Notes under the pieces: model-generated
Told to the model about the DNA's origin: nothing
Database searches by the model: none
The model's input: the letters and a program-made list of their open reading frames with translations, nothing else
Position numbers and translations under genes: made by a program
From: Minisyncoccota bacterium
GTDB taxonomy: Bacteria; Patescibacteriota; Minisyncoccia; Minisyncoccales; RBG-13-42-11
NCBI GenBank assembly: GCA_041653495.1
Contig: JBAZFF010000002.1
Coordinates: 18,281 to 50,280 of the forward strand
Length of the DNA stretch: 32,000 nt
Direction of reading: 5' to 3'
Part shown: positions 11,583-30,561 of the stretch, piece by piece
How positions within the stretch are numbered: the first letter of the stretch is position 1
Layout: each line of letters begins with the position of its first letter

Positions 11583-11598
11583 AATATTTTTTTCTTTG

Positions 11599-11670
11599 TG
11601 CCCCCAGCAGGACTTGAACCTGCAACCTTATCCTTAAGGGGGATCTGCTCTGCCATTGAGCTATAGGGGC
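11599..11670 (-). tRNA. tRNA-Lys (anticodon CUU as folded by hand), no encoded CCA
   Basis: Reverse complement: GCCCCTA TA GCTC AATGGCA GAGC A GATCC CCCTTAA GGATA AGGTT GCAGG TTCAAGT CCTGC TGGGGGC A. The cloverleaf is full (72 nt). The anticodon loop CCCUUAA gives CUU but places C, not U, at position 33. Confidence 0.75.
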
Positions 11671-11706
11671 CCCTAATAAGTTTATTACTGTTCCGTCCTT
11701 TCCCGG

Positions 11707-11778
11707 TGCCCCTGGAAGGAGTCGAACCCTCACCCCTGGTTCCGAAGACCAGTACTCTATCCATTGAGCTACAGGGGC
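11707..11778 (-). tRNA. tRNA-Arg (anticodon UCG), no encoded CCA
   Basis: Reverse complement: GCCCCTG TA GCTC AATGGATA GAGT A CTGGT CTTCGGA ACCAG GGGT GAGGG TTCGACT CCTTC CAGGGGC A, followed by CCG. Confidence 0.85.
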
Positions 11779-11807
11779 TCGAACATTTATAGAGTATATC
11801 ACGTTAA

Positions 11808-11836
11808 TTGAAAAAAACAAGTTTTCAAGATAAGAT
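11808..11836 (+). promoter_or_regulatory. Sigma-70-type promoter placing the TSS at or next to the cca ATG (leaderless)
   Basis: TTGAAA (11808..11813), 17-nt spacer, TAAGAT (11831..11836). Only 6 nt separate the -10 from the ATG at 11843. No SD. Confidence 0.45.
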
Positions 11837-11842
11837 TAGGGA

Positions 11843-13297
11843 ATGACCATCCCAAAAGAGGTAAAACTGGTGATAGAAACTCTTGAAAAGAAGAAGTTTG
11901 AAGCTTTTGTCGTCGGAGGCTGCGTCAGGGATATTTTGAGAGGAGAGGAGCCTAAAGACTGGGACGTGGCTACTTCCGCCAATCCGCAGGAAATCAAAAA
12001 AATATTCCCGGAGAGCTTTTATGAGAATAAGTTTTTGACCGTTACGGTTTTGACCAAAAGTAGAAAAGAATCTTTGAAAGAGATAGAGGTGACAACCTAC
12101 AGGCAGGAAGCGAAATATACCGATAAGAGGCACCCGGATGAAGTAAGGGCGGCCAAGAATCTCAGAGAGGATCTAGCCAGAAGGGACTTTACCATAAATG
12201 CAATAGCCTTAAATTCCAAAAAGGAAATTGTAGATCCTTTTTCCGGCCAGGAAGATTTAAAGAAAAAAATAATAAGAGCGGTGGGAAACCCCAAGGAAAG
12301 ATTTGCCGAAGATGCCTTGAGGATGATGAGGGCGGTAAGATTCGTATCCGTTTTGGGCAAGGGTTGGAGTATAGAAGAGGAAACCGCAAAAGCAATAAAA
12401 GCTAATGCAGCTTCTTTAAAAGAGATATCCAAGGAAAGGATAAGGGATGAGTTCTTGAAAATGATAATGTCAGAAAGAGCGGCGGAAGGGGTGGAAATGC
12501 TGAGAGAGCTGGGTCTTTTAAAGAATATAATCCCCGAGCTTGAAGAAGGATACAGAGTAGGGCAGAACAAACATCATATATATGAATGCTATGAGCACAG
12601 CCTAAAGTCTTTAGAATATGCAGCAAAGCAAGGCTTTAACATGTATGTCAGAGTTGCCGCTTTACTGCATGATATAGGAAAGCCCAGGTCAAAAAGAGGA
12701 GAAGGGAAAGATTCCACTTTCTACGGCCATGAGATAATCGGAGCTAGGATGGCTTCAGGAATATTGGACAGATTGAAATTTTCAAAGAAGGATGCGGAGA
12801 AAATAGTCCTTCTGGTGAGATATCACCTCTTTTATTATAATGTCGGAGAAGTGACCGAGAGTTCCGTCAGAAGATTGGTGAAACAGGTGGGGCCGGAGAA
12901 CATGGATGAATTATTGCAGGTGAGGATGTCAGACAGAATCGGATCCGGAGTTCCGAAAGCTGAACCTTATAAGTTAAGGCATTTTAGATATCTAATAGAC
13001 AAAGTGTCTCAGGATCCTATTTCAGCCAAGATGCTCAAGGTTTCCGGGAATGACGTGATAAAGGATTTGAAAATTGAGCCCGGCAGGAAAATAGGGCAGA
13101 TTTTAGAGATATTATTGGACGAGGTTTTGTCAGAACCTAAAAAAAATAATAAGATATATCTATATAAGGAAATTTTAAAATTGGGGAAGCTTTCCGAGTC
13201 AGAGCTTGCAAAATTAGCCCAAAGGGCTAAAAAACAGAAGGAAGGGTTAGAGATGAAAAAGGACGAGATGACTAAGAAGAAATACTGGGTGGTGTAG
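11843..13297 (+). CDS. cca: CCA-adding tRNA nucleotidyltransferase (class II, with HD domain)
   Basis: 484 aa. GGCVRDILRGEEPKDWDVAT head-domain motif, RRDFTINA, and HD domain LLHDIGKP. Confidence 0.9.
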   Translation: MTIPKEVKLVIETLEKKKFEAFVVGGCVRDILRGEEPKDWDVATSANPQEIKKIFPESFYENKFLTVTVLTKSRKESLKEIEVTTYRQEAKYTDKRHPDEVRAAKNLREDLARRDFTINAIALNSKKEIVDPFSGQEDLKKKIIRAVGNPKERFAEDALRMMRAVRFVSVLGKGWSIEEETAKAIKANAASLKEISKERIRDEFLKMIMSERAAEGVEMLRELGLLKNIIPELEEGYRVGQNKHHIYECYEHSLKSLEYAAKQGFNMYVRVAALLHDIGKPRSKRGEGKDSTFYGHEIIGARMASGILDRLKFSKKDAEKIVLLVRYHLFYYNVGEVTESSVRRLVKQVGPENMDELLQVRMSDRIGSGVPKAEPYKLRHFRYLIDKVSQDPISAKMLKVSGNDVIKDLKIEPGRKIGQILEILLDEVLSEPKKNNKIYLYKEILKLGKLSESELAKLAQRAKKQKEGLEMKKDEMTKKKYWVV

Positions 13298-13298
13298 G

Positions 13299-13369
13299 CG
13301 GGGTGTAGTGCAGTGGTAGCACGAGTCCTTCGGGAGGATTTAGCCCGAGTTCGAATCTCGGCACCCCGA
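13299..13369 (+). tRNA. tRNA-Pro (anticodon CGG), no encoded CCA
   Basis: CGGGGTG TA GTGC AGTGGTA GCAC G AGTCC TTCGGGA GGATT TAGC CCGAG TTCGAAT CTCGG CACCCCG A. The C1:G72 pair is typical of bacterial tRNA-Pro. It starts 1 nt after the cca stop. Confidence 0.85.
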
Positions 13370-13379
13370 CAGAAAGATT

Positions 13380-13832
13380 ATGGCCATTAAAAACACAATA
13401 AGATCGTTTAGAGCAGGAGAGTTCAGAATAAATAAAAACCTCTATTTGGTTTCCGCCGCATTAACCATATTGACTATGGTGATGCTGGCCACTGAATTCT
13501 TCAGCAGGTGTGCCTTTCCTTCAACCAGGATACCCCTTTTTTATTTGGGATTGTTAATTATCTATTCTTTGCACAAGGAACTGATCAGGTGGCTGGGAGA
13601 AGAGAAGGTAGAAAGGCAGGGAGAACTTTTCGTATATGCCTGGATTATGTTCACGACCTTTCTCTATGTCGTCAGCTTTGCCAGCAAGCAGTATTTTACC
13701 GATCAGGCGCAGGGAGGATGCGACTCTGCCATCGTGTCTTCTTGCACTATAACCTTGGAAATTTTGGTCATTTACCTGATAACCAGGGCCTCAAAATACG
13801 TGAAAGTGGCCAGAATATCAAGGAAAAAATAA
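13380..13832 (+). CDS. Small polytopic membrane protein, function unknown
   Basis: 150 aa with about four hydrophobic helices. It sits between tRNA-Pro (10 nt upstream) and tRNA-Ala (0 nt downstream). Confidence 0.6.
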   Translation: MAIKNTIRSFRAGEFRINKNLYLVSAALTILTMVMLATEFFSRCAFPSTRIPLFYLGLLIIYSLHKELIRWLGEEKVERQGELFVYAWIMFTTFLYVVSFASKQYFTDQAQGGCDSAIVSSCTITLEILVIYLITRASKYVKVARISRKK

Positions 13833-13903
13833 GGGCCTGTGGTTCAACGGCACAACACTACATTCGCATTGTAGTAATGGCGGTTCGATTCCGCCCAGGT
13901 CCA
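13833..13903 (+). tRNA. tRNA-Ala (anticodon CGC), no encoded CCA
   Basis: GGGCCTG TG GTTC..AAC A CTACA TTCGCAT TGTAG TAAT GGCGG TTCGATT CCGCC CAGGTCC A. The G3:U70 alanine identity pair is present (G13835/T13900). Confidence 0.85.
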
Positions 13904-13913
13904 CTTACTACTA

Positions 13914-14592: not shown

Positions 14593-14925
14593 ATGAAGAA
14601 AAATATTCAGAAAAACGATAAAGAGATCGCCATAATCCATTGGGAAGACTCTTGGACTCACGGCAATGTCCAATTGAGTGAGAAAGAATGGAAGAACAAA
14701 GGAATCGGATATGCGATTTCAGCTGGTCTTATCGTGGGGGAAGATGATAAACAGATTTCTATTGCAGCAGATTATTTCTATCCTCAGAATGTGGATGAGG
14801 GTTCCTTTCGGTCTGTGAACTCTTTTCCTAAGAGTGGTATACACAAAATAGTAAGGATAAAGCTACCTGTTGAGATTGAGAAAGAGATGCTTAAGTATCT
14901 CTTGAGGCCTAAATCAAAGAAATAA
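14593..14925 (+). CDS. Hypothetical protein (110 aa)
   Basis: ORF only, with no motif I recognise. It is the first gene of the codon-atypical block. Confidence 0.45.
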   Translation: MKKNIQKNDKEIAIIHWEDSWTHGNVQLSEKEWKNKGIGYAISAGLIVGEDDKQISIAADYFYPQNVDEGSFRSVNSFPKSGIHKIVRIKLPVEIEKEMLKYLLRPKSKK

Positions 14926-15005: not shown

Positions 15006-16124
15006 ATGAAAAATTTGGTTTTTGAAAATATCTTAAAAAATGCAGGGAATGATGCAAGCGAGTTTGTGAAAACAATTGGTAAAAATAGTTTGCGTCCGCC
15101 GCTATATAATGCAGAGAACTATGTTGGAAATATGATAAGAGATAAGTATTTTGCTGCACTAGTAATTGTGCGCCATTATGTAAAATTGACGAGTGATACA
15201 TACTGGTCAGAAATTGGTGCATTTAATGTAGATCTTTTCATGTTGACACCAAGTGCTTCATCTCCAATGGGTCCAGGATCTGATTCTGAAGTGATAAGTA
15301 TCCAATTTGGTAAATACCACACTAACCTCACTGACTCGTCGCAATTTGGTTTTGAGCCGCTCATGTTTCATCTCGATAAAGCATACTGTTATTTACCATC
15401 AATGCGAGGTGAGAATCCTGATGCACGACACTTGAACCAATTTTTTCACTGCGAAGCAGAAATTGTTGGAACACTCAGTGAATTATTACCGTATGTCGAG
15501 GGTTATGTGCGGGCACTTGCTAGGACATTTATGGCACTCGCACCAATCATAGAACTCATGAGCATTGATTTCTCAAGAACAGAACAGGCACTGCAAAGTA
15601 TTATCAATGCTAAGAGTTTCAATAAAAAGACTTTCGACGAAGTATATCCGTGGCTGCAAGAAAATTCTTCATTCTATTCGGTAAGTGACTTTGGAAGAAA
15701 CATTACCAATAATGGCGAGGTTGCACTTGTCCGAGCGATGGGAGATGGTTTGCCGATGTGGCTCTGTAACTACGACCGAGACACTGTTGCCTTTTATCAA
15801 AAACCAAATCCTGGAAACGCAAACTCTGCTATAAATGCAGACTTGTTATTTGCACCAATTGTCGAAGGTGGTTTTGGCGGAGAAATTGTGGGCTCTGGAC
15901 AACGACAGGATAACTCTGAAGAAATTACCGAATCTCTCAAAAGACAAAAAGTCGATGGAGGGCCTTATGAGTGGTACAGCAATCTTCGTAAACAACCGAG
16001 CTATAAAACAACATCTGGTTTCGGATTGGGGATAGAAAGATTTATCGCTTGGGCACTTGGATATTCTGATATTAAAGACGTCATTCATTATCCACGGCTT
16101 AAAAATATTAAGACACTACCATAA
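15006..16124 (+). CDS. Class IIb aminoacyl-tRNA-synthetase catalytic-core paralog (AsnRS/AspRS/AsnA-like), lacking an anticodon-binding domain
   Basis: 372 aa. PSMRGENPDARHLNQFFHCEAEIVG matches class IIb motif 2 (FRAE...RHL.EF..lE.E). GGEIVGSGQRQD matches GGEi.GGsqRe. SGFGLGIERFIAWALGYSDIKDVIHYPR matches motif 3 (GFGLG.ER......IRDVI.FPR). Only ~45 aa precede the core, so there is no OB fold. Confidence 0.75.
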   Translation: MKNLVFENILKNAGNDASEFVKTIGKNSLRPPLYNAENYVGNMIRDKYFAALVIVRHYVKLTSDTYWSEIGAFNVDLFMLTPSASSPMGPGSDSEVISIQFGKYHTNLTDSSQFGFEPLMFHLDKAYCYLPSMRGENPDARHLNQFFHCEAEIVGTLSELLPYVEGYVRALARTFMALAPIIELMSIDFSRTEQALQSIINAKSFNKKTFDEVYPWLQENSSFYSVSDFGRNITNNGEVALVRAMGDGLPMWLCNYDRDTVAFYQKPNPGNANSAINADLLFAPIVEGGFGGEIVGSGQRQDNSEEITESLKRQKVDGGPYEWYSNLRKQPSYKTTSGFGLGIERFIAWALGYSDIKDVIHYPRLKNIKTLP

Positions 16125-16126
16125 TT

Positions 16127-16969
16127 GTGCAAAAAGAAATTTTCGATTCATTTTTTAATTCATATGCAAAAACCGTTGATAAAGCTGCTGACATTAGTGC
16201 CTTTTGGCGACTGTCAGACGAAATTATAACTGAGATAGTCAGACGCGAAATTGCGCCGTATTGTAAAGATTCATCGCTTACCATGGATGCTGGTGGGGGT
16301 ACGGGAAGGTGGGCAATAAAACTAAGTGAGGTTTTGAAAGGGAAACTTGTTGTATTCGATCGTTCGGAAGATATGCTTGCGAAAGCATCAGAAAACATCA
16401 GTAAGAGCAACGTATCCGATCGTATTAATATATCAGAGGGAGACCTAACTCAGATAGATAATTTCACAGACAATAGCGTTGATAATATCGTGAGTATTTA
16501 TAGTCCTCTCAGTTTTATTTATGATCAAGATAAGGTGGCGAAAGAACTATTCCGTATTCTGAAGCCAGGAAGCCGCATTCTTTTAATGAGTCACGGTTAC
16601 CATAATGCATTGGCTTCTAAAATAAATAGCTATCGAGCTGGCGCAAAAGAGTTACAAAAACTTGCAAACGAACAGAGAGTGAAATGGGCTCCGCATGTCC
16701 CGGAGTTAGTAACTCATTCAAAAGAATCCATAGAAAAACTTTTTTCCGATGTAGGGTTTCGTATACAGAAAACGTATGGCGTACCTGTGTTTGTTCAGCC
16801 TGGTCCAGAAGACTTTGATCCAGAAAACGAAAAGAAAAGTGCAGTGAGTGAGTATCTTGAGAATCCTGATATTTTCAAATTAGTATTTGAAATCGAAATG
16901 AGATTTAATGCTGGAGAGACAGTGGCAAATCGAGGTATGAACATGTTCATGCTTGCAGAAAAGAAATAA
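16127..16969 (+). CDS. Class I SAM-dependent methyltransferase
   Basis: 280 aa, GTG start 2 nt after the upstream TAA. Motif I is LTMDAGGGTGRWAIKL. Post-I acidic FDRSEDML, and motif III-like ILKPGSRILLM. Confidence 0.8.
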   Translation: MQKEIFDSFFNSYAKTVDKAADISAFWRLSDEIITEIVRREIAPYCKDSSLTMDAGGGTGRWAIKLSEVLKGKLVVFDRSEDMLAKASENISKSNVSDRINISEGDLTQIDNFTDNSVDNIVSIYSPLSFIYDQDKVAKELFRILKPGSRILLMSHGYHNALASKINSYRAGAKELQKLANEQRVKWAPHVPELVTHSKESIEKLFSDVGFRIQKTYGVPVFVQPGPEDFDPENEKKSAVSEYLENPDIFKLVFEIEMRFNAGETVANRGMNMFMLAEKK

Positions 16970-16970
16970 T

Positions 16971-17852
16971 ATGAAAACGAATGAACTTGTAGAACAATAT
17001 CCTTGGCTTGCGAAGATAAACACCGTTGAAGATTACCTTCCGCCAGAATATTACCAACATCTGCTAAAACCATATACCTTTGGAGGAGTGTCAGATCTCT
17101 TATTACTTGAAAAGTTTTTATACAATAAAAAACCTTCAAAAGTACTGGAATTAGGTTGTGGTAGTGGCAGAGCTTCAGGCACTGCGGTTTCGACAATACC
17201 TACCGCAGATTACACTTTTTCAGATCTCAGCAAGAGGATGCTCAAAGCGGCAAGGAAACGCTTGCCAAAAAATTCATCTTTTATTGTTTCTGACGCGGTC
17301 GAATATATGGAAAATACTAAGAACATTTACGACCTTGTATATACACTCTGGAGTTTTTCGCATTCGACGCATCAACATATTCATCGTTTAGGCATAAAAA
17401 AAGCAGGAGATTATATTTCTTCTGTTATTAAAAAGTTTATTCGGAAGAATATTGTCAAAAAGGGATCATTCTTTCTAATGCATTTTGACTCACTCTCGCA
17501 AGAGCAAAGTATCTTAATGAGACAATGGAAGCGAGTATTTCCTGTTTTTGCAAATATCGAAGAACAAAGTCCTTCAAAGCAAATTATAGACAAGACTTTA
17601 TTGGAACTTGATACGAAAGGAGAAATAACGCTATCAATCAATCACTTACAAGGTGACGCAATTCATTATAAGTCAGAAGACGAGGTGTTAGAGACATTTA
17701 TGAATTTCCATCTTGAGACTTATTTCAACAATCTACCACTTACTGAAAGTGTTATTGACGATATAAAGGAACAAATTTCAAAATATCGTAATAAAGACGG
17801 CTCTTATGACATTACTCCAGGGTGTTACGTTTATTCCTTTATAAAAAACTAG
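16971..17852 (+). CDS. Class I SAM-dependent methyltransferase (second, non-identical)
   Basis: Motif I VLELGCGSGRASG, then FSDLSKRMLKAARKRL. I prefer the ATG at 16971 (1 nt after the upstream TAA) to the TTG at 16953 used by the ORF track. Confidence 0.75.
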   Translation: MKTNELVEQYPWLAKINTVEDYLPPEYYQHLLKPYTFGGVSDLLLLEKFLYNKKPSKVLELGCGSGRASGTAVSTIPTADYTFSDLSKRMLKAARKRLPKNSSFIVSDAVEYMENTKNIYDLVYTLWSFSHSTHQHIHRLGIKKAGDYISSVIKKFIRKNIVKKGSFFLMHFDSLSQEQSILMRQWKRVFPVFANIEEQSPSKQIIDKTLLELDTKGEITLSINHLQGDAIHYKSEDEVLETFMNFHLETYFNNLPLTESVIDDIKEQISKYRNKDGSYDITPGCYVYSFIKN

Positions 17853-17862
17853 CAAGCTTACT

Positions 17863-18894
17863 ATGAAAAAACTTCAAAAATTACAAAAAGGAGATAGAGT
17901 AGCAGTGCTGTCGCCATCGTTTGCGGCTCCTGCCATCTTTCCAAAAATATTCGAATTAGGGCTCCAGAGAATTCGAGACGAGTTCGGATTGGAGCCAGTG
18001 GAATATCCGACAACGAGAAAGTTAAACGCAAGCGCCGAGGAGCGTGCTTGCGATCTTATTGCTGCATTTTCTGATCCAGAAATAAAGGCCGTAATTGCAA
18101 GTACTGGCGGAGATGACCAAGTGACCTATATTCACAAAATGTCTCCAAAAGTATTTCTAAAAAATCCTAAGCCGTTTTTGGGCTACAGTGACAATTCACA
18201 CCTCTGTAGCTTCTTATTCCGGCATGGAATTCCTTCTTTTTATGGAGCATGTGTTATGACGCAGTTCGCGATGCAGGGAGAAATGGATAAATACACAGTG
18301 GAAAATATTCATCACGCCCTATTTGATTCGGGTGAATATGAAATCACCGCATCAGACGAATATAATGAAATTGGTCTAAATTGGAAAGATGAGACGCTTC
18401 TTACAACAAAACGAACCTATGAGAAAAACATGGGATGGGTATGGGATGCTCCAATGGATGGTGAGGGTATTTTATGGGGTGGGTGCCTGGAATCAATAGA
18501 TGACATGTTGCGCAACAATGTCCCAATCCCAAGTCTCAAAAAATTTGAAAACATTGTTCTTATGCTTGAAACATCGGAAGAAATACCATCGCATGGATAT
18601 GTGCGGCGAGTAATCCGTGCTTTGGGTGAAAGGGGGGTGTTACTCAATATTCAAGGTATATTAGTGGGAAAACCAAAAGCCTGGGAATTTGACAAACCAT
18701 TTACCAAAGAAGAGCGGATGACGTATACGAAGGGACAACAGGAGGCGATTATTGAAACTGTACGTATATATAACCAGATTGTTCCCATCATTCAAAATAT
18801 AAACTTCGGTCATACCGATCCGCAGGTGCCGATGCCGTATGGAGGAAAATTGCGAATTGAATCAGGTAGTCAAAAAATATTTGCTTCTTTTTAG
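17863..18894 (+). CDS. Peptidase S66 family serine hydrolase (LD-carboxypeptidase LdcA / microcin C7 immunity MccF type)
   Basis: 343 aa. GDRVAVLSPS, IKAVIASTGGDD, nucleophile motif PFLGYSDNSHL, acidic IVLMLETSEE, and NFGHTDPQVPMPYG (His). The length and the long insert between the two lobes resemble MccF-like members rather than ~300-aa LdcA. Confidence 0.85.
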   Translation: MKKLQKLQKGDRVAVLSPSFAAPAIFPKIFELGLQRIRDEFGLEPVEYPTTRKLNASAEERACDLIAAFSDPEIKAVIASTGGDDQVTYIHKMSPKVFLKNPKPFLGYSDNSHLCSFLFRHGIPSFYGACVMTQFAMQGEMDKYTVENIHHALFDSGEYEITASDEYNEIGLNWKDETLLTTKRTYEKNMGWVWDAPMDGEGILWGGCLESIDDMLRNNVPIPSLKKFENIVLMLETSEEIPSHGYVRRVIRALGERGVLLNIQGILVGKPKAWEFDKPFTKEERMTYTKGQQEAIIETVRIYNQIVPIIQNINFGHTDPQVPMPYGGKLRIESGSQKIFASF

Positions 18895-18900
18895 GAAAAA

Positions 18901-18923
18901 CACGAGGCGTGCCCTCGTGTTTT
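18901..18923. terminator. Bidirectional intrinsic terminator between convergent genes
   Basis: CACGAGG (18901..18907) / CCTCGTG (18913..18919), loop CGTGC. AAAAA lies upstream and TTTT downstream. Confidence 0.7.
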
Positions 18924-18944: not shown

Positions 18945-20099
18945 TTATGGCTGGCTGCAGAACAATCTCTGCAACAGTTCCCCGCCAATCACAGACGCGA
19001 CCATAACCTCTTTTCTGTTGTTAAGTAGCTTTGCTGCCCAGTCCATTGCGCCACCATCCGAAAGCTGAATCATGTCACCTTTTTGGTTGCTGGCGAATAT
19101 GTGGAAGCAGAGATGCAGATAATAGCCAAGCCCCGCTTTTCTATTGAAATCAAAGCAGAACCGAACTTGTGGATACATCTCGCGAAGAGGAGCCATGAGA
19201 CGGTGTTCCGTGTTGGTATAATATTCCTTATGATTGGCGATACCAATCCCTTCAAATATGGACGAACATAAATCATCAGCGCATTCAACTTCTTTCGGAA
19301 AAGGAACACGATACTTCTCAAAGAGATCAAATTCATCATTGAGTGAGTTCCGTATTATTTCTTCACGAGGAAGTTTTTGTGCCGCTATTAGCTGTTCGAG
19401 GAATCGAATATCTGAGACTTTGACAGTGATATTGCGTGATTTATAGCCTTCTTTATGTAAGGCAGATATCACATCCAGCAACATTTTTATGTGCATTCGC
19501 ATTGTTGCAGTCGCGAATCTCTCGTCCGATGAGGTTTGTAGTCCACCTGAACATAGAGCGAATATATAGAAATGTTGCATGTAGCCTTTATCCTTATCGA
19601 ATGGCTGGAGTCGCAACACACGCCCCGCAGTGCTCAGATGTACCGCGCTACAGTCCCCCTTAGAAGTTTTTTGTTTTCTTCGAAGCGAGCATTCCAGCGC
19701 CAATTGATTGGTGAAAGCACCGACAACCTCCGAATCATTTATAGTAGAGAGAACATTGTTTTGGCTAACACTACTTAGCACAGAGTTGAGACCAAGTGGT
19801 GCTATGGGAGAAGTCTGTACTGATTCGAATACAGGCCGCACTGTTTCGTGGAAAATCAAAGCATTCTGAAGGAGTTTGTCCTGAGCAATTGGACCGATTC
19901 CGAGAAACTCTTGCCTTCTCTCGTATTCCCGCAGTAATTCGGTAGGTTTTCTGGCCTTCGCTCGATTTTTGAATGCATGGATTAGGATAGGTTTCAGACG
20001 ACGCATCGGTGTCGTTGACAGAATCTCAAGAAGGTTGGGCACACCAAGCTCCTTGGAGATACTTTGAAGCATTTTTTCTTCCGAACTCTTAGGATCCAT
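18945..20099 (-). CDS. Class IIa aaRS-core paralog resembling HisRS/HisZ, no anticodon-binding domain; function unknown
   Basis: The track start (20138) is a TTG. The ATG at 20099..20097 is preceded by a consensus SD, AAGGAGGT, with 4-nt spacing, so I call 384 aa. AGRVLRLQPFDKDKGYMQHFYIFALCSGG resembles HisRS motif 2 (fRyErPq.GR.ReF.Q.g.E.fG). FDFNRKAGLGYYLHLCFHIF...LSDGGAMDWAAKLL...VMVASVIGGELLQRL resembles RGLDYYTG.vFE...GGRYD.L...PAvGFa.G.ERL. This is a motif-pattern match by eye only. Confidence 0.5.
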   Translation of the reverse strand: MDPKSSEEKMLQSISKELGVPNLLEILSTTPMRRLKPILIHAFKNRAKARKPTELLREYERRQEFLGIGPIAQDKLLQNALIFHETVRPVFESVQTSPIAPLGLNSVLSSVSQNNVLSTINDSEVVGAFTNQLALECSLRRKQKTSKGDCSAVHLSTAGRVLRLQPFDKDKGYMQHFYIFALCSGGLQTSSDERFATATMRMHIKMLLDVISALHKEGYKSRNITVKVSDIRFLEQLIAAQKLPREEIIRNSLNDEFDLFEKYRVPFPKEVECADDLCSSIFEGIGIANHKEYYTNTEHRLMAPLREMYPQVRFCFDFNRKAGLGYYLHLCFHIFASNQKGDMIQLSDGGAMDWAAKLLNNRKEVMVASVIGGELLQRLFCSQP

Positions 20100-20355
20100 C
20101 CTTACCTCCTTTTTTAGTATTAAAGAACTGGGCCTCAAAGACCACCTTGAAGATAATATGATTATACTATAATCACGCTTTATTGTATAGAGTAGGCTAA
20201 TTTTGTCCGGGGGAGCTCTGCGGGAGAGAGAAAGACTCGTACTTTATTAGCGACACCATCATACTGGAGAGTCTTATGAAATTTCGCAGGGAACTCTAAT
20301 TGCAGGAACCTATTCAAAGGGCAGGGGGTTAGGAAAATCGTCTTTTATTCCCGCC

Positions 20356-20422: not shown

Positions 20423-21172
20423 ATGTCAAAATATTACACGCCCCAAAGGCAGAGAGGGATATATGATCCTCGATATGAATTCAAAATATCCCGCTCAAAG
20501 ATAGACTTGTTCATTGATTGTCCGAGATGCTTTTATATTGATCTAAAATACGGAATCGCCCGCCCTCCCGGGTTCCCGTTCTCTTTAAACAACGCAGTGG
20601 ACACTTTATTGAAAAAAGAATTTGATTTTCACAGGGCGAACGGCACGAATCATCCGCTAATTGAGAAATACGGAATAGACGCCCGCCCGGCTCTCCATAA
20701 GAATCTGGAGCAGTGGAGAAATACGTTTACGGGAGTGCAGTATTTGCACAAGCCAACCAACTTTTTAGTTTTCGGAGCCATAGATGACTTATGGCAGGAT
20801 TCCAAAGGGAACTATATAGTAGTGGACTACAAGGCTACTTCCAAGAACGGAGAGATAAAAGAACTGAACGAAGAATGGCATAAGGGATATAAAAGGCAGA
20901 TGGAAATATACCAGTGGCTGTTGAGGCAGAACGGCTGCCAAGTCTCAGATACGGGATATTTCGTTTATTGCAACGGGAAGTCCGACTTGAATGCTTTTGA
21001 CGCAAAACTTGAATTTGATATAACCTTGATCCCCTATAAGGGGGATGATTCGTGGGTCGAGAAGACTATTTTAGACATACATAAGTGTTTGAATTCAGAC
21101 GCAATCCCAGAAGGGAACCCGGATTGCGATTACTGCAGATATATTCAAACTCTTAATTCCAAGGTAAAGTAA
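20423..21172 (+). CDS. PD-(D/E)XK nuclease, Cas4/RecB-like with four-Cys cluster
   Basis: 249 aa. N-terminal CPRCFY, nuclease core AIDDLW...YIVVDYKATSK, QMEIYQWLL (QxxxY), and C-terminal CDYCRY. Confidence 0.7.
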   Translation: MSKYYTPQRQRGIYDPRYEFKISRSKIDLFIDCPRCFYIDLKYGIARPPGFPFSLNNAVDTLLKKEFDFHRANGTNHPLIEKYGIDARPALHKNLEQWRNTFTGVQYLHKPTNFLVFGAIDDLWQDSKGNYIVVDYKATSKNGEIKELNEEWHKGYKRQMEIYQWLLRQNGCQVSDTGYFVYCNGKSDLNAFDAKLEFDITLIPYKGDDSWVEKTILDIHKCLNSDAIPEGNPDCDYCRYIQTLNSKVK

Positions 21173-21176
21173 TATA

Positions 21177-23753
21177 ATGATTATTGCCTTAAGTTGGGTT
21201 CTTGTAAGTTATGCCTTAGGATCCATACCTTTCGGCTATTTAATTTCCAGGGCTTTCGGAAAGGATATTCTTGAAGTTGGGTGGAAAAAGACATCCGGGT
21301 CTAATGTCTATAAGAATGTTGGAAAGGCTCAGGGAGTGCTTACTGGCCTCTTGGACATAGGGAAGGGATATTTGGCAGTATGGCTGGCCAAGCAGCTTGG
21401 ACTGTCTTTGGAATTCCAGATTTTGGCCGGGACAGCAGCCGTAGTGGGCCATAACTGGTCCCTCTTTTTGAAATTTTCAGGAGGAAGGGGAATCGGGACA
21501 TTCGCCGGAGCCCTTCTGGTCTTTTCTCCTATCTTATTCGGGTTGGCTGTCCTCATCATGCTTCTGTTTGCGTTCGTCTGGAGTTCTGCCATAGCCACTC
21601 TATTGCTTTTCGCATCCCTGATATTCTTTTTCTTCAACCCTCCGGCATTTCTGACGGTTTCCGAAGCTCAGTCGGCGGGATTTCTGGCGTTTTGTTGCCT
21701 TCCTTTCATCTTACTGAAAAGATTAAGTCCGATAAGCGCATTATTCGGGAATCCGAGAAGAGGGTTTTTGATTTTCTCCAGGTTGGTTTTTGACGACGAC
21801 AGAATAGTGGGCTTCAAATCCGACGAGGCAGAAAAGTTAATCAAGCCGATAACTATTACTTCTAAAATAGGCTGGGCGGTGGCCAAGTACGGGGCGAAGA
21901 TTACCAAGAGCGGGATCATAGCTGCGAAAAAAGGAGTGGAAAAGTACGTCTTGGGGGAGGACGAAATAGTTGTCACAGAACTCAGGGTTGAAGACTTCAA
22001 GAAAATGATGATAACTGCGGCAAAAAAAATAGTGATCCATCAGGAAGAGATAAACAAGATAAACGTCTTCCCTGTCGCAGACAAGGACACGGGATACAAT
22101 ATGGCAGCCACCCTTTTGGGAGTGGAAGGAGCGGTATCTAGAAGGAATTATTCCAATTTCAGGGAATTGACAGAAGATATGAAGGATGCGGCTATGATAA
22201 ACGCCAGGGGGAATGCGGGGATGATAACGACCGGCTATTTCGTGGAGGTTTTAGACAGAGTGAAACATTTAGAGACTATAGACGCTTTCCACTTGGCCCT
22301 GGCCATGCAGAGAGGGATCAAAGCCGCCAGGTCTTCAATCGCGGTTCCCGTTGATGGGACTATTTTAGACACAATCAGGGCGGCCGGAGAGAAAGCCTTT
22401 GAAATGGCAAAGGAGGGAAAAGAAAAGAACATAGTAAAAGTTTTGGAAGGAGCTTTAGCGGAGGCGAAGCACGCCTTGGAAACGACTCCTGAAAGGCTCC
22501 CGGTCTTGAAAGAGAATAACGTAGTAGATGCTGGCGGCATGGGATACGTAAAGATTCTGGAGGCCTGGGTAGACAGCCTAAAAGGAGTGGAATTGGACGC
22601 TCCGAATGGAAATAGTTCTTTTATCCAGCCGCAGGCGGAAGAAAAACTGGCATTCAGGTACGAAATAGTCGCAATGTTCAAGAAACCGGAAGATTTTGAC
22701 CCCGAAAAATTCAGGAAAGAGATTTCTTCATTGGGAGACAGTTTTGAAATGCTGGATGTTAATGAAAAAGTCAAATTTCACATTCATTGCAACGATACGA
22801 AATTAGTCTTGGATAAGATAAAGGGCTGTCCGGATTTAGACTGCAGGACGGAGGATATGCAGAAAGAAGAAAAGAAAGCGGCCAAGAAGCCTCTGGGCCT
22901 GGTCGTCGGCGAAACCGCAAATCTTCCAAAGCTATATATGAAAGAAAGAGAAATAGAAGAGGTGCCGTTCTTCTCCAGGTTTCCCAGCGGTGAAATAATA
23001 CACAAGAGGGAAGAGATCTTCCCGAGAATGAGGGAGGCTTTAGCAGAGGGAAAGCCCCTGCCCACGACTTCCGCCCCGTCATTCAAGGATTTTTTGGAAG
23101 CTTATGGAAAATCTTTGGAAAGATTTGAAAACATTTTAGTGATAACTCCTTCCTCAAAACTTTCCGGCACTTACAGTTCCGCCCGAATAGCCAGGTCCAC
23201 TTATAAGAAACCGCAAAAGACACATATATATGTGTTTGACTCCTTTGCCGTAGAAGTTGGAGAGGGGCTGATAGCAATGAAAGCCCAGGAGCTGATAGAC
23301 CGGGGAAAGAGCATGGAGGAGGTTGTAAAAGAGCTGGAGTCCTTCGCCCCGAAGATCTCTTTGGTGGCTTTGCTGGAAGACGTAAGATATATAGCGAAAG
23401 GAGGAAGGTTCCATCTGCCCGGTCTGGCTCTGTCTTTGGTCCTTTCCCTCCAGAAATTAGGATTGAGGATTTTAATAAAATTGAGAGACGGGGAAATAAA
23501 ACCAGCGGGAGCTTTCTTTGGCAAAGATATGGCAGAAACGATCTTTAGGGCTGTTGTGGGTGCCGTCGGGAAAAAGAAAGTGAAAGTGGCTATCGGCCAT
23601 GCCGATAATTTGAAGGCGGCGGAGAAGTTGAAAGAGCTGACTGAGAAAAACTTGAACGCAGAAGTTGTGTTCATCTCCGGAGTGTCGGCTGCGATCGGGA
23701 ACCACTCCGGTCCCGGGACTTTGATATTCTCCTTTTACGAAGTTGACAAGTAG
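21177..23753 (+). CDS. plsY: Triple fusion: PlsY acyl-phosphate:glycerol-3-phosphate acyltransferase + FakA-type Dak2 (DhaL-like) kinase module + DegV (FakB-type) fatty-acid-binding domain
   Basis: 858 aa in one uninterrupted frame. aa 1-200: YALGSIPFGYLISR, LDIGKGYLAV and VVGHNWSLFLKFSGGRGIGT (PlsY pattern, ~6-7 TM). aa ~270-470: INVFPVADKDTGYNMAATL, ARGNAGMITTGYF, PVDGTILDT and NVVDAGGMGYV (Dak2/YloV pattern). aa ~480-560: FRYEIVAMF...LGDSFEMLDVNEKVKFHIHCND (FakA middle domain pattern). aa ~590-858: LGLVVGETANLP, TTSAPS, ILVITPSSKLSGTYSSARIA, YIAKGGRF and IGNHSGPGTLIFSF (DegV pattern). Confidence 0.85.
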   Translation: MIIALSWVLVSYALGSIPFGYLISRAFGKDILEVGWKKTSGSNVYKNVGKAQGVLTGLLDIGKGYLAVWLAKQLGLSLEFQILAGTAAVVGHNWSLFLKFSGGRGIGTFAGALLVFSPILFGLAVLIMLLFAFVWSSAIATLLLFASLIFFFFNPPAFLTVSEAQSAGFLAFCCLPFILLKRLSPISALFGNPRRGFLIFSRLVFDDDRIVGFKSDEAEKLIKPITITSKIGWAVAKYGAKITKSGIIAAKKGVEKYVLGEDEIVVTELRVEDFKKMMITAAKKIVIHQEEINKINVFPVADKDTGYNMAATLLGVEGAVSRRNYSNFRELTEDMKDAAMINARGNAGMITTGYFVEVLDRVKHLETIDAFHLALAMQRGIKAARSSIAVPVDGTILDTIRAAGEKAFEMAKEGKEKNIVKVLEGALAEAKHALETTPERLPVLKENNVVDAGGMGYVKILEAWVDSLKGVELDAPNGNSSFIQPQAEEKLAFRYEIVAMFKKPEDFDPEKFRKEISSLGDSFEMLDVNEKVKFHIHCNDTKLVLDKIKGCPDLDCRTEDMQKEEKKAAKKPLGLVVGETANLPKLYMKEREIEEVPFFSRFPSGEIIHKREEIFPRMREALAEGKPLPTTSAPSFKDFLEAYGKSLERFENILVITPSSKLSGTYSSARIARSTYKKPQKTHIYVFDSFAVEVGEGLIAMKAQELIDRGKSMEEVVKELESFAPKISLVALLEDVRYIAKGGRFHLPGLALSLVLSLQKLGLRILIKLRDGEIKPAGAFFGKDMAETIFRAVVGAVGKKKVKVAIGHADNLKAAEKLKELTEKNLNAEVVFISGVSAAIGNHSGPGTLIFSFYEVDK

Positions 23754-28432: not shown

Positions 28433-29362
28433 ATGAAACACACAATCTCTCTAATAATAGGAGTAGCGGTCATGAGTCTTTTTGTGGGGTACTGGGCCAT
28501 TGCTTTTACTTCCCCCACAGCTACAGCTCCAGGCGACAATGTGGCTACCCCTCTAAATACAAGTATTAATGCCCAGTCGAAGGAAGGAGCTTTGGTGCTG
28601 GGAACCAATTCGTCGGTTTCCATAGCCTTAGTAGTGTTGAACGGAAAGGTGGGAATCGGGACAACGAATCCGAGTGAGAGTCTCGAAGTGGCTGGCAGCG
28701 CAAAATTCAGAGATTCTTTTATACTAAATCCAGTTAATGCTCCTTCTTCTCCAGCGGAAGGGGAAACTTATTTTAACCAGAACGACAAATTCATTTATTA
28801 TTATAATGGTTCGTCTTGGGTCAGGATAGGAACTGCAACCGGAGATTCTTGCACCACGGGCAGTGAGTGCGGAAGCGGTTATTGTGTAGACGGCTACTGT
28901 TGTAATTCTGCCTGTAGTAGCACTTGTTATGCCTGTAACCTTGCAGGGTCCATAGGCACTTGCACTGCAGTGACAAATTATGCGGAGGATTCGGGTTGTA
29001 CTTCCACCTGCCAGGGTTGTTCTAATGGCTCTTGTACATACATTCCCAACGGATATTCAGACACTTATGGTACTGGATTGTGTAATAATACTCATTATCG
29101 TTGTGATGGATCCGGTAGTTGTACAGCTCCTATTGCTACTTCAGATATAGGTTGCGAAACTTACCTTGGCGATACTGGTTATGAGGTTTGCTCAGCTCTT
29201 GGTTTCGACGGTTGTAATGTTGGTGCTATTTGTATAAGTGGTAATTGTGCTATGCCGACATATAATTGTGCCTGTAGTTATGTTTGTGACGGCGGCTGTA
29301 GTTATCCGGGTGCTTCAAATTACTATGGTACTATCAGATGTTATAACTGGGTGTACGACTAG
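28433..29362 (+). CDS. Membrane-anchored/secreted Cys-rich fibre-like surface protein
   Basis: 309 aa. N-terminal anchor IIGVAVMSLFVGYWAIAF, then GKVGIGTTNPSESLEVAGSAKF and a C-terminal half with about 30 Cys. It shares a 41-aa Cys module with the next gene. Confidence 0.75.
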   Translation: MKHTISLIIGVAVMSLFVGYWAIAFTSPTATAPGDNVATPLNTSINAQSKEGALVLGTNSSVSIALVVLNGKVGIGTTNPSESLEVAGSAKFRDSFILNPVNAPSSPAEGETYFNQNDKFIYYYNGSSWVRIGTATGDSCTTGSECGSGYCVDGYCCNSACSSTCYACNLAGSIGTCTAVTNYAEDSGCTSTCQGCSNGSCTYIPNGYSDTYGTGLCNNTHYRCDGSGSCTAPIATSDIGCETYLGDTGYEVCSALGFDGCNVGAICISGNCAMPTYNCACSYVCDGGCSYPGASNYYGTIRCYNWVYD

Positions 29363-29385: not shown

Positions 29386-30561
29386 ATGGATAAAAAAGAA
29401 AAATTAAAATCACTTTTCGGCTTAATAAAAAATAAGCAGATTTTATTTTTAGTTGTAATTGTGGTTTTAATAATAGGCGCCGCATTCATTTCTAAAGCCA
29501 CTTCTTCTATCACCGATACATTTGATGATTCCTCGAAAATTGCGGGGACAACCAACGTTACTGTCAGCGGAGGGCAGATAAAGTTATCTTTGTTTGGAAA
29601 CGGACTCGCCTGCACTTCCGCCAGCCAGTGCGTGTCAGGTTATTGCGCGGATGGATACTGTTGTAACTCTGCTTGCGGTAGCACTTGCCAAGCTTGTGAT
29701 TTAACGGGAACAGTAGGGGCATGCACCACCGTTGTTGCGGGACAAGATCCGGACAGCGAATGTTCAGCTTATACTTGCACTAATTATATATACGGCTGGA
29801 ACGGGAACAGTTGCGCTAAATATTCCGGAGCGACTTCTTACAACGGGACCTGTTCGGGCTCTACTAGCTGCTCAACTGTAGCCAGTTCCTGCACTGGCGT
29901 AGGCTCTGCTTCTGCTTCTTGCGGGAGCGCGGGGTGCAATAAGGCTTGCGTAGCCAGTTCATACTATACAGGATATGATACCGTAGCTGAAGTTTGCTAC
30001 ACTGCAGACCAGCATGGTTGCAGTACGTCATATTATTGTAATTCTTCAGGAACTTGCGTGTGTAATGGTACTGGAACGGCCTGTTCCTCCGGCATACAAT
30101 GCTGTTCAGGATATTGTTATATAGATGCAGACGGGGACGGATATGCTGGTTCTTCGGGAACTGCGACCTGCAGGCCGGCGGCTTCGGCGGGAACTGACTG
30201 CTATGACGCAAATGCCAATGCAAGGCCCGGGCAGACCTCTTCCTTCACGGCTAACAGAGGAGATGGAAGCTTTGATTATAATTGTAACTCTGTTATTATT
30301 AAAGATTCAAATTGTTCAGGTACTATAAATTGTACGGGATCAGGCTCTAATCCTTGTTGCGGCGGGTATACATCCTGTAGCGCGACATCTTACACTGCTA
30401 ATTGCGGACAAGCTTGGACGAGTGGTACTTGTGTAAATACGGGTTGTGCTGGTTATTATCAATGCGTTGTGGCGAATGCCGTTTCTGGGTGCGGTTGTTT
30501 CCCAATCGGTTCAGTTAATTATACTTGTTCTACGGTCGCGAAAACTTGCGGCTGCAATTAG
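29386..30561 (+). CDS. Membrane-anchored/secreted Cys-rich surface protein (paralogous module to the previous gene)
   Basis: 391 aa. TM ILFLVVIVVLIIGAAFI, then a region very rich in Cys, Gly, Ser and Thr, including CTSASQCVSGYCADGYCCNSACGSTCQACDLTGTVGACTTV. Confidence 0.75.
   Translation: MDKKEKLKSLFGLIKNKQILFLVVIVVLIIGAAFISKATSSITDTFDDSSKIAGTTNVTVSGGQIKLSLFGNGLACTSASQCVSGYCADGYCCNSACGSTCQACDLTGTVGACTTVVAGQDPDSECSAYTCTNYIYGWNGNSCAKYSGATSYNGTCSGSTSCSTVASSCTGVGSASASCGSAGCNKACVASSYYTGYDTVAEVCYTADQHGCSTSYYCNSSGTCVCNGTGTACSSGIQCCSGYCYIDADGDGYAGSSGTATCRPAASAGTDCYDANANARPGQTSSFTANRGDGSFDYNCNSVIIKDSNCSGTINCTGSGSNPCCGGYTSCSATSYTANCGQAWTSGTCVNTGCAGYYQCVVANAVSGCGCFPIGSVNYTCSTVAKTCGCN

Follow-up and report, generated by a model that had tools for sequence, protein, structure and literature searches.

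Agrocin 84, to which a commercial biocontrol agent for crown gall owes its activity, and microcin C (McC) belong to the two described systems that come closest to the gene cassette reported here: five genes (g1 to g5) in a 32,000-nt stretch of contig JBAZFF010000002.1 from a Paceibacterota metagenome-assembled genome (MAG; assembly GCA_041653495.1). The whole of this stretch is called the window below. A 2021 review describes the biosynthetic pathway of agrocin 84 as unknown; AgnA has been proposed to join a pentanamide precursor to AMP via a phosphoramide bond (PMC8323819). AgnC1, which resembles ProRS, may be another candidate, and agn-like clusters have been reported only in Ensifer and some Actinobacteria (PMC8323819). 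In the microcin C system, MccB strictly needs a C-terminal Asn and follows a succinimide route, while processed McC is cleaved by MccF, W186 of which stacks on the adenine (PMC8323819).

We read the cassette as a minimal agn/mcc-type set that makes or processes an N-acyl-phosphoramidate nucleotide, i.e., a mimic of an aminoacyl-adenylate, and put the probability of this reading at roughly 0.6. Judged by sequence, the cassette family appears to be widespread, with agrocin 84 rather than microcin C as its nearest known system. An initial annotation, made from the letters of the window, had proposed an adenylate-type small-molecule cassette without MccA and MccB but had missed that agn is a nearer known system than mcc. 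Homology to AgnA and the agn- and mcc-type partners encoded in sister loci bear out the proposal. AgnA, the suspected key enzyme of agrocin 84 biosynthesis, P-N bond step included, is now placed in a conserved minimal module.

An AgnA-Family Synthetase Core

The first gene, g1 (15006-16124, + strand, 372 aa), encodes an AgnA-family, AsnRS-type class IIb catalytic core, with the motif RGENPDARHLNQFFHCEAE at residue 134 and GFGLGIERF... at residue 338. PF00152 (residues 99-365) is its sole Pfam domain. The NCBIfam model asnS (TIGR00457) aligns residues 44-367 with model positions 127-451 at 148.5 bits, as against a cut-off of 342.6. Because model positions 1-126 are unmatched, g1 is without the oligonucleotide/oligosaccharide-binding fold (OB-fold) of the anticodon domain; its N-terminal extension is helical and of some 45 residues. 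Both alignments are limited to the catalytic domain, and the class IIb motifs 2 and 3 and the missing OB-fold of the initial annotation are confirmed. In the AlphaFold2 (AF2) model, which has a mean predicted local distance difference test (pLDDT) score of 76.8 and is poor at residues 73-148, residues 1-69 are helical and form no beta-barrel.

A search of plasmids with g1 led to agnA on pAgK84, annotated as "Agrocin84-synthetase". AgnA and g1 are 31% identical over 341 aa (BLASTP, 3e-42), the N-terminal extension included. In the plasmid search, AgnA-type proteins matched g1 at 4e-31 to 3e-104 and canonical asnS products at 2e-13 to 4e-16. Among solved structures, sequence comparison favours AsnRS (1x54, 1.8e-23) over archaeal AsnA (3p8t, 4e-5), and Foldseek likewise ranks AsnRS 1x54 first (3.8e-16; AsnA 3reu, 2e-9). 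On the archaeal AsnA model NF005055, g1 reaches 126 bits (cut-off 389), and it scores under every curated AsnA and AsnRS cut-off. The TIGR00457 score and the absent OB-fold speak against a housekeeping AsnRS, and the NF005055 score and the faint match with 3p8t against an archaeal-type asparagine synthetase A. The class IIb catalytic fold with its motif 2 and motif 3 residues is what g1 has in common with archaeal AS-AR and housekeeping AsnRS; it differs from the former in being much closer to AgnA and from the latter in having no anticodon domain.

Across 81 family members, AgnA and the plasmid proteins included, the residues D110, S111, Q113, R134, E136, H142, F146, E150, E152, D279, E293, G298, R300, E344 and R345 are invariant. 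The position that we take to be the Lys of AspRS is Phe or Leu throughout. By its sequence, g1 retains all AsnRS residues for binding ATP and an Asn-type amino acid but is incapable of reading a tRNA anticodon, and it is the sole canonical ATP-using adenylating enzyme of the five-gene set.

The family is small, for a search of 1.84 billion proteins yields no more than 89 representatives (50% identity) at E <= 1e-30. In some of these, the g1-type domain is fused to others, namely Asparaginase_2 (beta-aspartyl peptidase), in part together with HIT, HIT alone, GNAT, a methyltransferase or a PP-binding carrier domain. Five proteins (P0278, P0282, P0350, P0332 and P0324) combine a C-terminal g1-type domain with Asparaginase_2 and/or HIT; such fusions come from fungi (Talaromyces verruculosus) and from metagenomic sequences of unknown origin. 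A protein from a fish assembly adds a carnitine acyltransferase domain to a g1-type fusion and may be a gene-model artefact. On plasmids of Pantoea agglomerans, a GNAT domain is fused to an AgnA-type core that is 41% identical to AgnA (locus L090, 7284-8879); the gene adjoins those for an MFS transporter and a metallophosphoesterase, with no S66 or methyltransferase gene nearby.

A Putative MccF/AgnC5-Type Amidase

The fourth gene, g4 (17863-18894, + strand, 343 aa), encodes an S66 serine peptidase of the MccF-like superbranch, BA3275 type, with both S66 domains of Pfam (PF02016 and PF17676). The Ser/Glu/His pattern noticed in the initial annotation was located in the motifs GYSD (Ser109), LETSEE (Glu236) and FGHTDP (His317), and these residues align with the MccF triad S118, E243 and H311. 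The closest solved relative is BA3275 (5f1y, 9e-49), an uncharacterised protein of B. anthracis, followed by E. coli MccF (3tla, 1.4e-17; identity of 22-23%) and LdcA (1zrs, 1e-5); AgnC5 matches g4 at 9e-29. At the level of the alignment, Trp174 corresponds to the adenine-stacking W186 of MccF and is followed by an MccF-type loop of about 30 residues, which E. coli LdcA does not have. These extra residues, the structure match of 1e-5 and the 50.8 bits on the LdcA model NF008424 (cut-off 378) speak against LdcA itself. We did not find a paper on BA3275, on the cassette, or on AgnA-type enzymes in Patescibacteria by full-text searches.

In MccF, N220, R246 and K247 contact the Asp side chain; the same columns in g4 hold Glu (E210), Glu and Pro. 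Since the pocket residues differ from those of MccF, a different acyl or aminoacyl group is to be expected. In the S66 proteins of the cassette family as a whole, Ser and His are invariant and the acid is Glu or Asp, and the W186 column has Trp in nearly all, with a few Tyr or Phe. On these alignments, g4 is a probable serine amidase of the MccF/AgnC5 type, in which the triad and the Trp for adenine stacking are both intact. As to whether the protein sides with MccF or LdcA, as the initial annotation had asked, the MccF-type loop and Trp are present and it is not LdcA-like, but it stands on the BA3275 branch and the MccF contacts to Asp are absent.

An alternative voiced in the initial annotation, AsnA-like amidation plus LdcA-type recycling, has to be weighed here. 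In such a reading, the locus would serve ordinary metabolism, with g1 an AsnA-like, tRNA-independent Asn synthetase, g4 an LdcA-type murein carboxypeptidase and the methyltransferases unrelated neighbours. NCBI names several relatives of g1 "asparagine synthetase A", g1 does gather its 126 bits on NF005055, S66 is the LdcA family, and the window's flanks include cell-wall enzymes (a LysM-M23 peptidase and an amidase). Both assignments are nevertheless below their cut-offs: g1 is closer to AsnRS and AgnA than to the solved archaeal AsnA, and g4 is far nearer to MccF-type structures. Moreover, the partners vary together in the manner of a module, the genes around them differ from one locus to the next, and the family, besides being small, is patchy and often plasmid-borne. 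We consider ordinary metabolism very improbable.

Among cultured organisms, Streptomyces has the nearest relatives of g4, at about 42% identity; they are S66 genes that stand alone on plasmids. On the plasmid of Streptomyces sp. NBC_00239, the g4-type gene (locus L082, 5085-6131) sits among TetR, DHFR-family and chloramphenicol phosphotransferase genes, surroundings that suggest a resistance role for this S66 branch.

Conservation of the Gene Association across Species

One genome per species was scanned, and 80 loci encoding g1 relatives at 46-88% identity were found, nearly all of them in Patescibacteria and one on a plasmid of Calothrix parasitica. When the loci were searched with the window's proteins (tblastn), the S66 gene was found beside the g1 homologue in 74 of the 80, g2 in 35, g5 in 26 and g3 in 12; the flanking genes of the window were essentially never recovered. 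The neighbourhood of the g1 family and the S66 gene is far beyond chance. The initial annotation had made its proposal depend on co-occurrence elsewhere, which is the rule, and on g1 not clustering with AsnA/AsnRS-like asparagine synthetases that occur as lone genes. It does not: AgnA is closer, and members of the g1 family are never lone genes. With the S66 protein's grouping with LdcA as the third, all of the refuting outcomes named there were looked for, and each check favoured the proposal.

All open reading frames (ORFs) within 7 kb of a g1 homologue were then clustered, over 81 loci. A S-adenosylmethionine (SAM) methyltransferase fold is encoded in 72, the g5 family in 27, an HD hydrolase in 10, an APH-like kinase in eight and a HIT protein in five, with a pyridoxal phosphate (PLP) decarboxylase, a Nudix and a radical SAM protein in three each; the recurrent HIT, Nudix and HD hydrolase genes provide a link to nucleotide chemistry. 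Using A for the g1 family, M for a SAM methyltransferase, m3 for the g3 type, P for S66, H for the g5 family and X for an AlaRS-like protein, the main gene orders are A-M-m3-P-H (seven loci including the window), M-H-P-A and HD-M-X-P-A. The association survives this shuffling of the order across species, which is strong evidence of a functional unit. The methyltransferase type follows the type of the second synthetase core (H, X or a LysRS-like protein; see below), and so does the N220 column of the S66 proteins: 16 of 22 X-type loci have Arg there, and H-type loci have Pro or Glu. With the active site of g1 invariant while peptidase, methyltransferase and second core co-vary, the adenylating enzyme looks to be the constant element.

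The agn locus of pAgK84 comprises agnA, the SAM methyltransferase gene agnB1, agnB2 for a resistant LeuRS, agnC1-C7 and Nudix genes, agnC5 being annotated as "MccF-like protein". Compared with the loci by BLASTP, AgnA has 87 matches in the g1 family (best 1.4e-59), AgnB1 27 among the methyltransferases (best 2e-69) and AgnC5 74 among the S66 proteins (best 3e-73). The likeness is one of parts: the truncated AsnRS-type core AgnA matches g1 and the MccF-like AgnC5 matches g4; many sister loci, though not the window, encode a methyltransferase with 38-41% identity to AgnB1; both have a second class-II-like protein, and neither has MccB. Nudix genes, which recur in the loci, are present in agn as well. 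The agn product is a P-N-linked acyl-adenylate mimic that poisons an aminoacyl-tRNA synthetase (aaRS). The differences are as evident, since agn is made up of 17 genes, including those for the resistant LeuRS, an exporter and sugar and hydroxy-acid genes, whereas the window has five genes without any of these. Furthermore, the window's methyltransferases are not of the AgnB1 or AgnC3 types, g5 is HisRS-like and unrelated in sequence to AgnC1, and agn belongs to a plasmid of Rhizobium rhizogenes K84, not to a Paceibacterota MAG. In two loci only, an ABC transporter gene (L016, 1639-3429; L052, 1497-3287) whose product is 35-39% identical (1e-95) to the one encoded beside the agn genes on pAgK84 sits 4-6 kb upstream of the g1 homologue.

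With the E. coli mcc operon, taken from a plasmid, as a reference, MccF matches 74 S66 ORFs of the loci (up to 3e-63, at 35% identity) and MccD, over its full length, methyltransferase ORFs in 22 loci (best 3e-32). The N-terminal decarboxylase domain of MccE matches the PLP decarboxylase of three loci (best 7e-14), in which the genes are ordered A, MccD-like, MccF-like, MccE-like. The cassette has in common with mcc an S66 amidase whose triad and adenine-stacking Trp are alike, a chemistry presumably centred on asparagine, and the HIT genes that recur in the loci, comparable to MccH. In contrast, the loci have neither MccA nor the ThiF-type MccB nor the MccC pump, the adenylating enzyme is a class II aaRS core and not E1-like, the window is without MccD and MccE, and the pocket residues of g4 differ from those of MccF. 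E. coli MccB found no ThiF/E1-like counterpart at E <= 0.01 by tblastn in the window or the 80 loci, and no PLP decarboxylase is present in the window. There is no short, MccA-type ORF ending in Asn within the 1-10 nt spacers of the cassette or in the 80 nt 5′ of g1, a stretch that holds a hairpin and no ORF; on both the ThiF/E1-like gene and the short ORF the initial annotation was right for the window. In relatives, a gene for an XRE-type regulator occupies the region upstream of the g1 homologue instead. In three loci (L001, L002 and L003), this small helix-turn-helix gene ends just before the g1 homologue (about 200 nt upstream); the window has a 110-aa ORF (14593-14925) preceding g1, unrelated to the XRE-type gene.

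Second Synthetase-Like Cores

The initial annotation had taken the unit to consist of four genes. These stand, but it missed g5 (18945-20099, - strand; alternative start TTG at 20138), convergent with g4 beyond the terminator. Genes of the g5 family lie beside g1 homologues in 27 loci, on either strand, and g5 belongs to the cassette as its fifth member. Sequence searches with g5 gave neither a Pfam nor a PDB match; a few of its 364 homologues are tagged PF13393, one (P0121, 384 aa, from a Candidatus Paceibacterota MAG) is 100% identical, and a protein encoded on Bacillus pseudomycoides plasmids is 41% identical (6e-103). With the AF2 model (pLDDT 86.4), Foldseek finds HisRS 3hri (7e-15) and HisZ 6fu7 (6e-14), at TM-scores of about 0.55-0.60. 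The protein ends directly after motif 3 and has no anticodon-binding domain. Compared with E. coli HisRS, R259 is replaced by Ala ("DGGAMDW" for "GGRYD") and R311 by an invariant Leu375, a tentative assignment given the weak hhalign score (E = 0.06). On this model, g5 is a HisRS/HisZ-like class IIa core, and it appears to have lost the Arg for the ATP gamma-phosphate. HisG, the partner of HisZ, is not represented by any HisG-like family among the recurrent neighbours or the annotated genes of the window.

Other loci carry other cores in its stead. The X family (about 375 aa, 23 loci) matches, as a profile, the AlaRS catalytic core 1riq at 1.2e-16, and its motif-3 Arg is replaced, as in g5. The X proteins were at first lumped with the peptidases, in loci written "M-P-P-A", and constitute a separate family. 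A divergent LysRS-like paralogue (431-462 aa) is the second core in four loci: it directly follows the A gene set in L022 (11075-13785), L058 (10964-13773) and L069 (10924-12246) and is close beside it in L014 (2622-3935). In two of these four, a canonical LysRS gene is next to it, and the methyltransferase there is of a type of its own. In all, about 54 loci encode a HisRS-, AlaRS- or LysRS-like second core, so that most cassettes hold a second class II synthetase core devoid of tRNA-reading parts. In L011 (9907-11985, - strand), a family X core and an MccF-like S66 peptidase are fused into one 692-aa protein; the locus holds a separate g4-type S66 gene besides.

A rule that would read the target aaRS off the fold of the second core was tried and abandoned. 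It fits the AlaRS-like cores that occur with an AlaRS, but the HisRS-like core sits with a GluRS in B. pseudomycoides, and ProRS-like cores occur with LeuRS in Xenorhabdus and in agn.

The Two Methyltransferases

Between g1 and g4 lie two genes for class I SAM-dependent methyltransferases, g2 (16127-16969, + strand, GTG start, 280 aa; Pfam Methyltransf_25/31/11) and g3 (16971-17852, + strand, ATG start, 293 aa; Methyltransf_25/12/11). An in-frame TTG at 16953 is an alternative start of g3; ATG 16971 is favoured because homologues measure 293 aa. Methyltransferases of the g2 type, at >= 44% identity, are encoded beside g1 homologues in about 25 loci and those of the g3 type in 11-12. The methyltransferase gene adjoining the g5 homologue on the B. 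pseudomycoides plasmids encodes a protein 42% identical to g3 (3e-82), and g2 finds generic methyltransferases only on plasmids (tblastn). Neither is an orthologue of MccD, AgnB1 or AgnC3, with which they have no significant BLASTP match (against MccD, E = 2.2 for g2 and above 2 for both). MccD, which the initial annotation had named as decorating McC-type compounds, has its counterparts, as AgnB1 does, in sister loci; the window's own pair is of other types. A PADLOC scan for anti-phage systems returned the generic methyltransferase match "mad2" for g2 and g3 and no match for g1, g4 or g5.

Among NCBIfam models, g2 matches that of the tRNA methyltransferase CmoM best, with 55 bits where the cut-off is 366. 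Together with the nearest upstream neighbours of the cassette, tRNA genes and the gene of the CCA-adding enzyme, this match, far under its cut-off as it is, brings up the modification of a macromolecule: a tRNA base or a protein side chain would receive an amino acid from g1 and g5, with the methyltransferases completing the modification and the S66 enzyme taking it off again. Synthetase paralogues that do such work are known, GluQRS being a tRNA-modifying paralogue of GluRS and EpmA, a class II core without an anticodon domain, a paralogue of LysRS that modifies EF-P. No conserved target gene, be it for a tRNA, EF-P or another molecule, accompanies the cassette; the tRNA genes are not conserved beside other loci, and both homology and context indicate small-molecule clusters. 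Of the readings weighed, we hold this one to be the least probable.

Clusters on Plasmids of Cultured Relatives

The module that joins an AsnRS core and an MccF-type amidase to a SAM enzyme and a second synthetase-like core is found in about a hundred species of Patescibacteria; among culturable bacteria, Bacillus, Xenorhabdus, Peribacillus, Exiguobacterium and Bradyrhizobium carry it on plasmids. The megaplasmid of Xenorhabdus bovienii CS03 has the A-M-P order of the window (A, an AgnB1-type methyltransferase, S66), with genes for a nucleoside phosphorylase, VOC and GloA proteins, leuS, an aaRS-related protein and an MFS transporter. The Peribacillus psychrosaccharolyticus cluster consists of genes for an ATP-grasp protein, an MFS transporter, a 595-aa AlaRS, the AlaRS-related X, a methyltransferase, A and S66; that of Exiguobacterium sp. 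Helios of sugar genes, X, a methyltransferase, A, a glycosyltransferase, an ATP-grasp protein, a deoxynucleoside kinase and AlaRS. On pBTZ_2 of B. pseudomycoides, genes for an ATP-grasp protein, gltX, the g3-type methyltransferase, the g5 homologue, MFS, S66, an aminotransferase and a QueC-like protein are found, and past an IS6 element ahcY, an AgnB1-type methyltransferase, A and a second ATP-grasp gene. In Bradyrhizobium barranii/elkanii, genes for S66, A (52% identical to g1), HAD and a methyltransferase lie between insertion sequence (IS) elements.

With the exception of the IS-flanked Bradyrhizobium genes, these clusters have, from their gene content, the look of producer clusters for synthetase inhibitors, because each has an extra aaRS copy and all bar Exiguobacterium an MFS exporter. 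In comparison with the window, the clusters of cultured relatives add MFS exporters, ATP-grasp ligases, sugar genes and extra GluRS, LeuRS or AlaRS. The targets are possibly diverse, as these extra copies indicate.

It may be asked whether the cassette confers resistance only, an island against the aminoacyl-nucleotide antibiotics of neighbours or hosts in which the S66 enzyme would hydrolyse the compound, the methyltransferases would inactivate it and the two synthetase cores without tRNA domains would be decoys for soaking up adenylate mimics. MccF and stand-alone MccF homologues do confer resistance to McC (PMC8323819), and a g4-type S66 gene keeps company with resistance-type genes on the Streptomyces plasmid. 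The window has neither an exporter nor an extra aaRS gene, the motif-3 Arg has gone from g5 and the AlaRS-like cores as it might from a non-catalytic binder, and in L011 the AlaRS-like core is fused to an S66 peptidase. A pure decoy, however, would not need every catalytic residue of an adenylating enzyme, and g1 keeps them in 81 members. The homologues of MccD and of the MccE decarboxylase domain in sister loci are biosynthetic, not protective, and the genes of pAgK84, Xenorhabdus, Peribacillus, Exiguobacterium and B. pseudomycoides sit in producer-type clusters, each with a second aaRS copy and all bar Exiguobacterium with an exporter. On balance, a role in resistance only seems improbable.

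Proposed Function and Points against It

In the agn/mcc-type reading, g1 would start from an Asn-type substrate and connect an amino or acyl group with a nucleotide through an N-acyl-phosphoramidate (P-N) link, by analogy with MccB, which makes the same link from a C-terminal Asn through a succinimide intermediate. The enzyme encoded by g4 would cut the acyl-N(P) amide, either for self-protection or as a processing step, and g2 and g3 would methylate the product or an intermediate. The protein g5 would set or bind the variable amino-acid part, an AlaRS-like or LysRS-like core taking its place elsewhere. The product would be a non-hydrolysable aminoacyl-adenylate mimic, an inhibitor of an aaRS. 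The initial annotation had thought of an Asx-adenylate-like molecule that the cassette could make, tailor or detoxify; nothing shows the product to be an Asx-adenylate, and the one relative whose product is known makes agrocin 84, in which the acyl group is Leu-like.

Several points weigh against this reading. The chemistry of the AgnA family, AgnA's included, is a proposed one, and for g1 a candidate activity predicted by homology. The window's own methyltransferases are not of the AgnB1/MccD type, and g4 belongs to an S66 branch distinct from MccF, without the Asp-binding residues of the latter. The role of g5 is a guess, because two Arg needed for HisRS catalysis are absent; moreover, hhalign found nothing that would make g5 a homologue of AgnC1 (probability 0.3%), which is agn's second class-II-like protein. 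The window and most Patescibacteria loci have within reach neither an exporter nor an extra resistant aaRS, the usual marks of a producer; in the window, no aaRS that could be a resistant target, and hence an immunity gene, was found among the ORFs scanned with Pfam. We discounted the scattered ValRS, LeuRS and AspRS neighbours of some loci, since chance adjacency of an aaRS gene is too likely in genomes of 1 Mb. Finally, very small symbiont genomes would not be expected to keep antibiotic clusters.

A more specific route with two enzymes can be put forward, doubtful as we think it. The AgnA-type core and the amidase would together move the amide nitrogen of Asn onto AMP, and the second core would add the acid. 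In the first step, g1 would turn Asn and ATP into (iso)asparaginyl-phosphoramidate-adenosine, as MccB does on a peptide; in the second, the S66 enzyme would free Asp and adenosine 5′-phosphoramidate; in the third, the second core (HisRS-, AlaRS- or LysRS-like; AgnC1 in agn) would join its own amino or hydroxy acid to the amine. The outcome would be a non-hydrolysable aminoacyl-AMP mimic with its target set by the second core. The constant site of g1, set beside an S66 pocket and a methyltransferase type that vary with the second core, fits such a route, as do the X-S66 fusion of L011, the fusions of g1-type domains with Asparaginase_2 and/or HIT, and the extra AlaRS beside AlaRS-like cores. 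It is weakened by the loss of the motif-3 Arg, because of which the second cores may not activate an acid with ATP, and by B. pseudomycoides, where the extra aaRS beside the HisRS-like core is GluRS and not HisRS. If true, the two-enzyme route would explain the P-N bond of agrocin 84, and many Patescibacteria would carry programmable poisons of tRNA synthetases.

For the broader agn/mcc-type reading, the module links the agrocin and microcin C systems via common tailoring and immunity enzymes and indicates a route to aminoacyl-adenylate mimics that is independent of MccB. As the module is minimal and conserved, the agrocin 84 question becomes testable with four or five small soluble proteins, and relatives that can be cultured bring its chemistry within reach of experiment. 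Ultra-small symbiotic bacteria have given few signs of wielding a dedicated small-molecule weapon, or of defending themselves against such weapons; if the reading is true, the cassette would be one.

Layout of the Cassette and Its Surroundings

The initial annotation had placed four genes almost without spacers; their coordinates hold, and the spacers g1/g2, g2/g3 and g3/g4 measure 2, 1 and 10 nt. It had also called a strong bidirectional terminator behind g4. A palindromic, strandless hairpin with a strong fold is indeed there between the convergent g4 and g5, starting at 18897 instead of 18901 (18897-18923): an 11-bp stem and a 5-nt loop, preceded 5′ by AAAAA and followed 3′ by UUUU, with a folding energy of -15.9 kcal/mol (z = -3.27 against shuffled sequences). 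It is plausibly a bidirectional intrinsic terminator serving both genes. Upstream of g5, a promoter-like site (20161-20189, - strand; TATACA-17-TATAAT, 10/12 matches) is weak evidence, the regional count of such sites not being above the shuffled expectation.

Between 14 and 18 kb of the window, the G+C content is 0.37-0.40, as against 0.42-0.46 in the flanks, a drop that would fit an acquired island. Just upstream of the cassette (11598-13904), the tRNA genes Lys-CTT, Arg-TCG, Pro-CGG and Ala-CGC bracket the gene of the CCA-adding enzyme; in an Rfam scan of the window, these four tRNA genes were the sole structured RNAs. In addition to the CCA-adding enzyme, the LysM-M23 peptidase and the amidase, the flanks encode PNPase, KsgA, NusA and an H+-PPase. 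Three ORFs, at 2638-5118 (- strand, 826 aa), 28433-29362 (+ strand, 309 aa) and 29386-30561 (+ strand, 391 aa), have no Pfam match at E <= 1e-5.

Divergent from g5, a stand-alone Cas4-like PD-(D/E)XK nuclease gene (20423-21172, + strand), scoring under the Cas4 cut-offs, recurs near the cassette in one further locus only (L077). It is followed by an 858-aa ORF (21177-23753, + strand) that unites PlsY (a glycerol-3-phosphate acyltransferase), Dak2/FakA-like and DegV parts in an unusual triple fusion, by which fatty-acid kinase and acyltransferase parts are joined.

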